Translations under genes and position numbers: made by a program
Shown: one piece after another, positions 13,221 to 37,568 of the stretch
Layout: every line of letters starts with the position of its first letter
Position numbering within the stretch: position 1 is the stretch's first letter
Notes under the pieces: model-generated
What the model was told of the DNA's origin: nothing
Seen by the model: only the letters and a program-made list of their open reading frames with translations
Database searches by the model: none
From: Escherichia phage vB_Ec-M-J
Sequence record: OQ718158.1
Strand: one strand, 5' to 3'
Length of the DNA stretch: 64,000 bases

Positions 13221-14363
13221 ATGTCCGAGAAAGAAATCAATCCGAAAAAAGCAACAGTTAAACAAGCCAAAGCAACCAAAACTGCCAAACGTACTACCAA
13301 AACAGCAGCACACACAATTGACGCAACTGATATCTTCGAACAACAGTCCAAGTCACTTCCAGTACTGAAAGATACTAAAGGCAACAGTATGGCTTTAACT
13401 GTGCAGAATATTAATACCATCGGAACCACTGCTGGGGCAGGTGTAGGACGTTTGGCTGATGAAATCATGTCAAAAGTTAACGTCACTGATGATAATACCG
13501 AATTCGGTAAGTCTATTACTACTATCTTGACATTGACTCGTGCAGTTGATATTGATAGTCTACAGGATGATAAATCAATCGTAGGCTGGGTCAAAAAACT
13601 TTTTGTTAATGCTAAACAGAAAGTTGGCGATCAGTACAAAAACAGTAAAGAACAAATTGATGAAATCATGAACACTCTTCAGGTTGGTATTAACCGCCAG
13701 CATGGGGAATGTGCATGGCTAGACACTGCTTACAACGAAAACAAAAACTATCTCTTTGAACTGCGTGATACGTTAGTTGAGTTGGAAGAAGTTACCAAAG
13801 CACAAGATGCTGAATTGGTAGCAATGCAAGCGAACCCTGACGTTGATTCTTTTGCAATCCAGGAGCAAAAGATGATTTGTGAAGCTCTTTCTAAACAGGA
13901 AGATAAGATTCGTCGTCTTATCATGATGTGTGAACTGAGCGGTCCTCGCCTGATGAGTATGAAGAAAGTAAACCTCAACACTGTTTCTAAGTTTGAGGAT
14001 TTGAAATCAGTTGTTATTCCAGCATGGAAATCACAATTGGCTGAACAGTTGATTTCCGAACGTCAACGTAAAGACAATGAGTTGGGTAATCTGATTGACA
14101 ATGAAACTAACCGTTTACTCGAAGTAAACTCTAAAATGGTAGCAACTAACATGTTGGATGCTGCTAAGGCAAATAATCGTGGTATCGTGGATATTAAAAC
14201 ATTGCGTAATGTACACAAAACAATGATCGATAGCATCGAAGCAGTACTGATTGAAGAGAAGAAAGGTAAAGAAGAGCGTGAGCGAGCTAAGATTGAAATC
14301 GCAAAACTCTCTCATGAACTTGAAGATACTCTTCGTGAAATTGCTGAAAAAGCTAACAAGTAA
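13221..14363 (+). CDS. hypothetical Lys/Thr-rich N-terminus, coiled-coil-like protein (380 aa)
   Basis: ORF-track start (TTG 13146) lies in the promoter; first ATG with SD gaggaa is 13221. Confidence 0.75.
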   Translation: MSEKEINPKKATVKQAKATKTAKRTTKTAAHTIDATDIFEQQSKSLPVLKDTKGNSMALTVQNINTIGTTAGAGVGRLADEIMSKVNVTDDNTEFGKSITTILTLTRAVDIDSLQDDKSIVGWVKKLFVNAKQKVGDQYKNSKEQIDEIMNTLQVGINRQHGECAWLDTAYNENKNYLFELRDTLVELEEVTKAQDAELVAMQANPDVDSFAIQEQKMICEALSKQEDKIRRLIMMCELSGPRLMSMKKVNLNTVSKFEDLKSVVIPAWKSQLAEQLISERQRKDNELGNLIDNETNRLLEVNSKMVATNMLDAAKANNRGIVDIKTLRNVHKTMIDSIEAVLIEEKKGKEERERAKIEIAKLSHELEDTLREIAEKANK

Positions 14364-35396: not shown

Positions 35397-35512
<116 letters not shown>

Positions 35513-35619: not shown

Positions 35620-35780
<161 letters not shown>

Positions 35781-35784
<4 letters not shown>

Positions 35785-35941
35785 CACATGAAGAATGGAT
35801 GAATGACATTAATTTTAGATATTCGGGTATCGGTAAATGGCTAAAGTATCATTGGGAATTCATTTCAGAGCCACATCTGTATGATAAACTTATCAACGAT
35901 CCAGCATATGAAATGTACTTAATTGAACTACTGGTACGAAT

Positions 35942-35945
<4 letters not shown>
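35781..35945 (+). CDS. small protein, MTHEEW mini-family copy 2 (54 aa)
   Basis: MTHEEWMNDINFRYSGIGKW...; near-identical 5' 50 nt to copy 1. Confidence 0.5.
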
Positions 35946-36113
<168 letters not shown>

Positions 36114-36114
36114 G

Positions 36115-36536
<422 letters not shown>

Positions 36537-36540
<4 letters not shown>

Positions 36541-36565
36541 CTAAATAGTTCAGTACTGATATAAT
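36537..36565 (+). promoter_or_regulatory. sigma70-type promoter, repeated cassette copy 2
   Basis: Identical 22-nt ttgactaaatagttcagtactg then aTATAAT; -35 overlaps stop codon. Confidence 0.6.
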
Positions 36566-36571
36566 GAATTC

Positions 36572-36912
36572 CACAATCAGACGTATATGGTGTAAGTTAC
36601 GTCGATGTAATCCAGAACAAGATCTCTGGTACTCTAGGAAGTGGTGAATGTTAACCTAGACGGGTTTGATAATTGGACGATAGGCAATTATTACTTGACT
36701 AGCAGGTTTAAACTAGAGGTGACAGTCCTTTACCAAACTGGAAAACCGGATGGACTTTTATTTAAAAGGGTAAGGCGTGGAAATATGTTTACAGTAGTTG
36801 CTTTTAGTAGCCTGTACGCCCCACGTCAAGGTAGCCGAAAGGCAAGTTAAAACGGGTGGTTATAAAGCTGAATTAACAGCGGCGTTTAAAAGCGTCACCA
36901 TCCATTTTTTTT
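36572..36912 (+). ncRNA. candidate structured non-coding RNA (~340 nt), unknown class
   Basis: No well-initiated ORF; locally elevated GC; several hairpins; bounded by promoter copy 2 and T8 run at 36905-36912. Confidence 0.3.
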
Positions 36913-36928
36913 AATTAAAGTTGGTGAT

Positions 36929-37568
<640 letters not shown>

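Follow-up and report, generated by a model that had tools for sequence, protein, structure and literature searches.

What does Escherichia phage vB_Ec-M-J encode between a promoter cassette and a run of eight T residues beside its transfer RNA (tRNA) genes, an RNA or a protein? The interval in question occupies positions 36572-36912 of the 64,000-nucleotide (nt) stretch of sequence record OQ718158.1 that we analysed, hereafter the window. It contains an open reading frame (ORF) of 69 codons, and a first reading of the letters alone had proposed a single structured RNA of ~340 nt. Our analysis upholds the structured and non-coding parts of this original prediction but not the single RNA, since the interval divides into two modules with different phylogenetic distributions. 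The evidence supports a composite non-coding RNA transcription unit that contains these two modules and no protein gene. We put the probability at roughly 0.78 that the region of the first, module A, is the gene of a structured non-coding RNA whose family is absent from Rfam.

36571-36757, + strand: module A, an RNA of ~185 nt with three pseudoknots, defined by BLAST, alignments A2 and A5, covariance model R1 and pair counts.
36774-36912, + strand: module B, in which a long hairpin and a GNRA hairpin precede a 50-nt three-way junction with eight U residues (U8) behind it.

The division emerged from BLAST against 50,697 phage records, in which the 340 nt split into two parts with differing distributions, one extending over about 36567-36757 (module A) and the other over about 36765-36912 (module B). 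Module B as a whole is restricted to the jumbo group of phages. In Klebsiella phages a 44-nt insert with the promoter sequence TTGAAC-17-TATAAT lies between the modules, and because it separates them, module B appears to be a transcription unit of its own in these phages.

Module A occurs in 69 of the phage records, and its five lineages are the RaK2/121Q jumbo phages (Asteriusvirus/Alcyoneusvirus), Bragavirus, Novosibvirus, the Aeromonas T4-like phages (Ishigurovirus/Ceceduovirus) and an uncultured contig. Identity is 94-100% in jumbo phages of E. coli, Salmonella and Klebsiella, 85-91% in the T4-like Bragavirus (Proteus PM2 and Pm5461, Morganella Mm5, Shigella SdyM_006) and 86% by BLAST in the T5-like Novosibvirus (Proteus phages 1 and 2). 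In the Aeromonas T4-like phages (65, CC2, AS-zj, avDM6 and others) the core of the module is about 80-87% identical. The uncultured lineage consists of one divergent copy on a 120-kilobase (kb) contig without a close isolate (L008), found by a pattern scan of IMG/VR. Scans meant to widen the family (three degenerate-pattern scans of IMG/VR, one of a metagenome and two of bacterial genomes, with BLAST repeated from the L008 and Aeromonas copies) added the L008 lineage and near-identical metagenome copies and nothing else. Among 185,579 genomes of bacteria and archaea, none contains a true match to the core motif; a 27-nt match to a relaxed pattern in an Actinomycetota metagenome-assembled genome does not fit model R1 and was set aside as chance. 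BLAST likewise detected nothing similar in 5,426 E. coli genomes, and in plasmids it returned a single marginal 32-nt match. Mimicry of a host sequence was rejected, as neither E. coli genomes nor plasmids show similarity. As far as these collections show, the module A family is thus confined to phages.

Thermodynamic folding of 36572-36912 as a whole gave z = -1.8 on either strand, which is neither better than chance nor strand-specific. Single-sequence folding being uninformative, the case for structure therefore rests on the comparison of homologues and not on hairpins visible in one sequence. Alignment A2 holds 16 sequences and A5 holds 18; the latter was realigned to the covariance model and was thus fitted to its nested helices, and pseudoknotted helices were added by a search for further covarying antiparallel runs. 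The comparative folding that the original prediction had called for supports 52 pairs in module A and 15 in the 3' three-way junction of module B. The final module A model places its 52 pairs in 10 helices, comprising seven helices (H1-H7) and three pseudoknots:

36571-36574, + strand: 5' leader CCAC, the 5' pseudoknot strand, pairing with GUGG at 36641-36644 in the H3 loop; 97% paired (CG:11, GC:6).
36577-36605, + strand: H1, UC(A)GACGUA with UACGUCGA around the conserved loop GGYGYA; four pairs changed on both sides.
36612-36629, + strand: H2, CCAGA/UCUGG, a hairpin of variable length.
36633-36660, + strand: H3, UCUAGG/CCUAGA, 100% paired, with four of six pairs covarying; its loop carries the GUGG strand.
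36661-36668, + strand: J3/4, CGGGWUUG, single-stranded and nearly invariant across the alignment columns.
36669-36691, + strand: H4, AUAAUUG/CAAUUAU, with the invariant loop GACGAUA; closing pair AU:7, GC:7, UA:3.
36693-36716, + strand: core H-type pseudoknot, made of S1 (ACUUG/CAGGU, 36693-36697/36703-36707) and S2 (CUAG/CUAG, 36699-36702/36713-36716).
36718-36755, + strand: 3' H-type pseudoknot, made of H6 (GGUGA/UUACC) and a 7-nt loop in which GUCC (36725-36728) pairs with GGAC (36752-36755).
36738-36749, + strand: H7, a small hairpin in loop 3 of the 3' pseudoknot.

At these pairs 90.3% of alignment cells are canonical, compared with 26-39% in controls that shift the 3' partners by 1-3 columns. 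Changes on both sides are found at 23 pairs, a number that none of 500 shuffles reached, and the covariation score is 0.305 versus 0.125 in shuffles. RNAalifold independently recovered parts of H1, H3, core helix S1 and H6. Loops and junctions are near-invariant while the stems vary (H1 loop GGYGYA, J3/4 CGGGWUUG, H4 loop GACGAUA). Some U-G pairs of the model, one of them in the core pseudoknot, are themselves invariant, and the RNA is therefore assigned to the + strand.

Several helices take different forms in different lineages. The 5' pseudoknot reads GCAC/GUGC in Aeromonas phages and CUACA/UGUAG in L008, and H1, compared by eye, reads GGGAUA/UAUCCC and AUGCAU/AUGCAU in the same two groups. 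The hairpin quoted in the original prediction, ccaga (36612-36616) with tctgg (36625-36629), turned out to be H2, which appears as CCG/CGG and CCAA/UUGG in other phages; the Aeromonas rows lie one column off in the alignment here, and their CCAG/CUGG pairs by eye. The two core pseudoknot helices are 99% and 100% paired, and in Aeromonas phage 65 a C-G pair has become A-U through changes on both sides, a replacement absent from its relative avDM6. The 3' pseudoknot is 100% paired and occurs in four forms, GUCC/GGAC, ACCC/GGGU, GCCC/GGGC and AUCC/GGAU.

Covariance model R1 scores 135-226 bits on all module A homologues, and over 702 kb of unrelated viral DNA its sole match below E = 0.05 was the true copy in RaK2. 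The Rfam scan proposed with the original prediction found no family for module A or module B. With the gathering thresholds of Rfam 15, the whole window yields five tRNAs (RF00005) only, none of them within 36572-36912, and a permissive scan of 36400-37100 with E up to 10 returned two noise-level matches (E = 1.8 and 7.6). No Rfam 15 family matched, including RNase P, the group I intron, 6S, GOLLD, ROOL, HEARO and self-cleaving ribozymes. ARAGORN detected no transfer-messenger RNA (tmRNA) and no extra tRNA in the window, and 36572-36912 has no tRNA-like cloverleaf with a T-loop and acceptor stem. A tmRNA was rejected: the RNA lacks a tRNA-like domain, the tmRNA clan gives no match at E up to 10 and tag frames are not conserved. 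A tmRNA-type tag or a decoy for Shine-Dalgarno (SD) pairing fared no better, as the candidate frames are not conserved and the invariant GAGGU is buried in helices. A CsrA-type GGA sponge was discarded with the loss of the GGA motifs from the Aeromonas copies, and a GAAA-tetraloop receptor in the H1 loop was abandoned for lack of conservation in the Aeromonas phages. A literature search found no description of the module A RNA. Module A is an RNA family new to Rfam, within the class of phage stable RNAs from tRNA clusters, and it is unusual in its three-pseudoknot architecture and its spread across phage families.

The 69-codon ORF is present in the ORF list as had been noted, with a GTG start and a 69-amino-acid product. 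Conservation as a protein, which the original prediction had weighed as the opposing possibility, is not what the homologues show.

36641-36850, + strand: 69-codon ORF, spurious; it spans both modules, meets in-frame stops in homologues and has no Pfam or PHROG family.

In three homologues from Klebsiella phages, with about 95% identity in module A, this reading frame contains two stops and is split by the 44-nt promoter insert. The tRNA-flanked T4-like and T5-like copies reach only as far as the counterpart of codon 39, which corresponds to 36757, and have no ORF there. The GTG "start codon" is the GUGG strand in the H3 loop. Searches of Pfam and PHROGs found no match for this ORF or for two smaller ones. 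When all ORFs were compared across lineages, the only shared "proteins" were translations of the module A RNA or of tRNAs. A protein partner encoded nearby was likewise rejected, as no flanking protein gene is common to the lineages. Many records annotate one to three "hypothetical proteins" over module A or B, and the conservation of RNA and tRNA translations accounts for such annotations over the locus in several GenBank records. These sequence comparisons support the view that 36572-36912 encodes a structured non-coding RNA and not the 69-amino-acid product.

The genomic context of the other copies ties module A to tRNA genes. The original prediction had argued from the position beside tRNAs, which in the window are same-strand genes at 35423, 37332, 37575, 37658 and 38770 (ARAGORN); the argument is borne out beyond expectation, as the same RNA sits between two tRNA genes in other phages. 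Wherever tRNAs were mapped, by annotation or ARAGORN, module A lies on their strand. In the Bragavirus phages PM2, Pm5461 and SdyM_006 it takes up the ~200 nt that separate tRNA-Gly from tRNA-Asp, in Proteus phage 2 (Novosibvirus) it fills the space between two tRNA-Leu genes, and in Aeromonas phages it forms the first ~190 nt of the gap between tRNA-Pro and tRNA-Thr. The conserved leader of these tRNA-flanked copies starts 1-4 nt past the encoded CCA of the upstream tRNA, and the final helix ends about 5-10 nt ahead of the next tRNA, which leaves the T4-like and T5-like copies no space for a promoter or terminator of their own. The Aeromonas gap continues for about 80 nt between module A and tRNA-Thr, with a conserved hairpin GGUUGAU...AUCAACC (L003, about 2590-2667), and this segment may be a further small RNA module. 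In Morganella phage vB_Mm5 (PP397179, L019), GenBank places the tRNA genes on the strand opposite to that given by ARAGORN.

Module A is not found in every relative of the window's phage. In phage phAPEC6 the promoter and the first 36 nt of module A are left and the remainder of both modules is gone, a natural deletion of about 330 nt (L027 1499-1560 against window 36565-36930) that leaves the promoter near the downstream gene. In the Asteriusvirus phages Sharanji, G17, EC22.5-2 and ECO103 4-12-1, the BLAST match likewise consists of the promoter and the first ~36 nt only. The unit is therefore accessory. Where it is present, it has apparently travelled: module A of the jumbo coliphage shares 87-91% identity with that of Proteus T4-like and T5-like phages, compared with 59-73% for isoacceptor tRNAs of the same phage pairs. 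That module A is more alike than the tRNAs points, on sequence grounds, to fairly recent horizontal exchange among Enterobacterales phages on top of purifying selection. In Shigella phage SdyM_006 a segD-like homing endonuclease gene immediately precedes tRNA-Gly and module A, and HNH genes lie nearby in Turkey3 and RaK2; homing endonuclease genes beside several copies would be a plausible vehicle of transfer. In T4, SegB is reported to bring about preferred inheritance of the tRNA region (PMC2330249).

The window itself belongs to a 121Q/PBECO4-type jumbo coliphage. By BLAST, positions 36500-36930 match Escherichia phage Turkey3 at 100% identity, and 121Q, PBECO4 and their jumbo coliphage relatives at 97-99%. 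Other observations of the original prediction hold here: the interval is GC-richer than its surroundings (40.8% G+C where the window averages 34.9%, which ranks it at the 97.5th percentile among segments of its size), the run of eight T residues lies at 36905-36912, and the sequence at 36537-36565 is a sigma-70 promoter close to consensus (TTGACT-17-TATAAT) whose -10 element is extended. The unit has a promoter and a probable terminator of its own, contains no tRNA, and is followed 17 nt past U8 by an ORF at 36929-37300. Its remaining features are:

36537-36565, + strand: promoter cassette, TTGACT, a 17-nt spacer with TG, and TATAAT.
36116-36137, 36537-36558 and 37297-37318: copies of the 22-nt cassette TTGACTAAATAGTTCAGTACTG, driving a protein gene, the RNA unit and tRNA-Ser, respectively.
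36774-36827, + strand: B1, a long irregular hairpin with outer stem GGCGUGG/CCACGUC and inner stem UACAG/CUGUA; fold z = -3.2.
36834-36843, + strand: GNRA-tetraloop hairpin GCC-GAAA-GGC, found also in the EJP2 copy between tRNA-Ser and tRNA-Arg.
36854-36903, + strand: 50-nt three-way junction with a 7-base-pair outer stem, a CUG-AAUURA-CAG hairpin and a 5-base-pair hairpin with a UUAAAA loop.
36905-36912, + strand: U8 run that immediately follows the junction's outer stem.
L004 2451-2494 and 4424-4467, L012 373-416 and 1764-1807, L025 1540-1583, L026 about 13780-13835: other junction copies in RaK2/121Q-group phages.

The three copies of the 22-nt cassette in the window are identical, with none expected by chance, and the third, at 37297, directly precedes tRNA-Ser at 37332. 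Three tandem, overlapping and paralogous 54-amino-acid ORFs (35620-35784, 35781-35945 and 35942-36106), each beginning MTHEEWM, occupy the space between tRNA-Ser and the first cassette.

Module B has a history of its own. B1 is 81% identical to part of an ORF-free region (about 650 nt) of Kuravirus podophages, where its outer stem GGCGUGG/CCACGUC becomes, by eye, GCUGUGG/CCUCAGC; this relative has no Rfam match. The region in Kuravirus XT18 (L024, about 1640-2290) appears to be a mosaic of short conserved pieces, of which 2001-2054 is common with B1 and others recur in further Kuravirus, N4-like/Gamaleyavirus and Klebsiella podophages, and it may hold further phage RNAs absent from Rfam. The 3' segment of module B, formed by the GNRA hairpin and the junction, folds with z = -3.7 against shuffles, and the 15 junction pairs are 96.7% canonical over eight copies, with five pairs changed on both sides. 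The junction cassette also follows tRNA-Ser or tRNA-Arg in RaK2-group phages, directly ahead of module A, and in EJP2 the junction and the GNRA hairpin lie between tRNA-Ser and tRNA-Arg. In the window, the junction and U8 are the probable intrinsic terminator of the unit. A simple terminator scan did not flag 36854-36912, because the stem is branched. The U runs of the Klebsiella and EJP2 copies are weak or interrupted, and the cassette may in general act as a terminator, a processing signal or a stabiliser.

The comparisons show homology, genomic context, a secondary structure with pseudoknots, non-coding status and dispensability; from these one can suggest how the RNA might be made and act. 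In the window, the strong early-type promoter at 36537-36565 would drive module A, with module B and the branched three-way-junction terminator with U8 following. Module A is the functional core, an autonomous RNA gene moving between phage families that jumbo coliphages would express from an acquired standard promoter cassette and end with a probable terminator. The tRNA-flanked copies of T4-like and T5-like phages, with no room for a promoter or terminator, would be transcribed within a tRNA precursor and released by the enzymes of tRNA maturation, presumably through an endonucleolytic cut just past the CCA of the upstream tRNA and RNase P cleavage at the 5' end of the downstream one. With the 5' leader tied into the H3 loop and the 3' end into the H6 loop, the product could resist exonucleases and accumulate stably. 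Because the lineages share no phage protein neighbour and the loops are invariant across Enterobacterales and Aeromonas phages, its likeliest activity would be to bind a conserved host component in trans, by way of CGGGWUUG, GACGAUA and GGYGYA. We advance this trans-acting, host-factor-binding mechanism tentatively, and that the target has to do with tRNA or translation is a guess prompted by the context. More specifically, and with lower probability, module A could be a horizontally exchanged, trans-acting "RNA moron", that is, a decoy, sponge or inhibitor of a conserved host factor in the sphere of tRNA and translation, examples of which would be a tRNA-directed defence nuclease or an enzyme of tRNA processing or RNA decay. 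If so, phages of three families would acquire module A together with tRNA arrays, protecting their translation. A new small ribozyme is less likely than such a moron.

Several points weigh against the reading of module A as a structured RNA gene. Minimum-free-energy folding of module A gives z = -1.0 against shuffles and a predicted fold unlike the comparative model. Such a result is expected of a pseudoknotted RNA, as this kind of folding cannot form pseudoknots; energy nevertheless lends no independent support to the structure. The independent lineages number only about five or six, and several of the covarying pairs therefore go back to one or two events in evolution; the shuffle control for covariation ignores relatedness among the sequences. 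One core helix is ambiguous: the second CUAG (36713-36716) may pair with CUGG at 36738-36741, extending H6, instead of with 36699-36702, and the same lineage-specific substitutions compensate both pairings. These mutually exclusive pairings may be alternative conformers. The expected transcription start at about 36572 would cut into the conserved AUUCCAC leader of the 5' pseudoknot; here transcription may read through from the 36116 promoter, or the pairing may be shortened to CAC/GUG. The transcript ends, stability and abundance of module A are all inferred.

The RNA gene has also to be weighed against other accounts of the locus. Module A could have no function in trans and serve tRNA operons in cis, as a spacer or a processing element such as a folding insulator or nuclease entry site, or it could be a neutral passenger spreading along with tRNA-cluster segments by way of the homing endonucleases that are common in these regions. 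Such a reading, which we consider improbable, would fit the copies embedded in tRNA arrays, the homing endonuclease genes near the SdyM_006, Turkey3 and RaK2 copies, the SegB-driven inheritance of the T4 tRNA region reported in PMC2330249, the viable sister phages that lack the unit without obvious consequence, and a cross-family identity above that of tRNAs, as recent transfer would produce. The E. coli jumbo phage unit carries a promoter and a probable terminator of its own but lacks a tRNA, however, and cannot act on a tRNA precursor there; and loops that stay invariant from Aeromonas phages to L008 while the stems covary indicate selection on a folded, interacting RNA. A cis-regulatory leader, with module A as the sensor of a riboswitch or attenuator and module B and U8 as the expression platform for the gene at 36929-37300, is a good deal harder to sustain. 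The order of promoter, structured RNA, probable terminator and an ORF 17 nt further on suits it, as do the two exclusive pairings of the second CUAG, both compatible with the observed substitutions, and the phAPEC6 deletion that puts the promoter beside the same downstream gene. Yet module A of T4-like and T5-like phages has a tRNA within about 10 nt downstream and no terminator or ORF, a promoter splits the modules in Klebsiella phages, the junction taken as terminator is a generic cassette found after tRNAs as well, and no Rfam riboswitch family matches.

The two remaining accounts carry very little weight. The location among tRNAs, tandem pseudoknots that recall tmRNA, and an AGUCC loop in a long-range helix superficially like P4 of RNase P RNA (as in the M1 RNA sequence) could suggest a highly diverged tRNA, tmRNA, RNase P RNA or group I intron missed by standard models. 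We regard this as scarcely credible given the negative results of ARAGORN and of Rfam 15 at E up to 10 over 36400-37100, and the RNA has no T-arm, acceptor stem, tag frame shared by homologues or flanking half-tRNA exons. Least credible, and already contradicted, is the account in which the 69-codon ORF or another small ORF encodes a protein and conservation reflects coding constraint. An ORF is indeed present, with an SD-like AGGAAG upstream, and several GenBank records annotate a hypothetical protein here. Its Klebsiella homologues have two in-frame stops and the 44-nt insertion, however, the T4-like and T5-like copies end at the codon 39 equivalent, the substitutions are compensatory in RNA helices, Pfam and PHROGs give no match, and the GTG lies inside a pseudoknot strand. 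A structured non-coding RNA gene thus accounts best for the comparative data, and a locus routinely mis-annotated as one to three hypothetical proteins merits an RNA family model. Phages with the natural deletion (phAPEC6, Sharanji, G17) and carriers (121Q, PBECO4, Turkey3) are in culture collections, which together with the structure model opens the role of tRNA-cluster RNAs to experiment.

The closest known kind of RNA is that of the T4 species 1 and species 2 stable RNAs (rnaC and rnaD), a kind and not a homologous family. These small stable RNAs of the T4 tRNA cluster have been known for decades and are still without an assigned function (PMC9697503). Like module A, rnaC and rnaD are small non-coding RNAs whose genes share the strand of a phage's tRNA genes and lie within their cluster or at its end. 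Searched with model R1 at E up to 1, the T4 tRNA/rnaC/rnaD region gave no match, and BLAST returned no T4 record; homology was rejected on the covariance-model search and inspection of the T4 sequence. Module A measures ~185 nt, compared with 139 and 119 nt for the T4 species, lacks the tRNA-like T-arm sequence GGTTCGAATCC of rnaC and, unlike rnaC and rnaD, is common to three phage families. Non-tRNA small stable RNAs also lie among the tRNA genes of T5, and module A too occurs in a T5-like phage, Novosibvirus; BLAST with module A over the 50,697 phage records found no Tequintavirus record.

Wider parallels concern architecture and setting. GOLLD, ROOL and HEARO are, like module A, structured RNAs of unassigned function that are often found in phages or prophages, and they often adjoin tRNA genes. 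They are several hundred nt long, whereas module A is much smaller; their Rfam models have no match here, and module A occurs only in phages of Enterobacterales and Aeromonas. The pseudoknot string of tmRNA and the pseudoknots upstream of the tRNA-like 3' ends of plant viruses resemble module A in their consecutive H-type pseudoknots and compact ends. Module A, unlike these, has no tRNA-like domain, CCA end or tag ORF, and the likeness is architectural only. Module A thus stands beside the T4 species as a second, unrelated and much better constrained tRNA-cluster RNA, one that jumbo, T4-like and T5-like phages share, that is more conserved between them than their tRNAs and that comes with a testable three-pseudoknot model.

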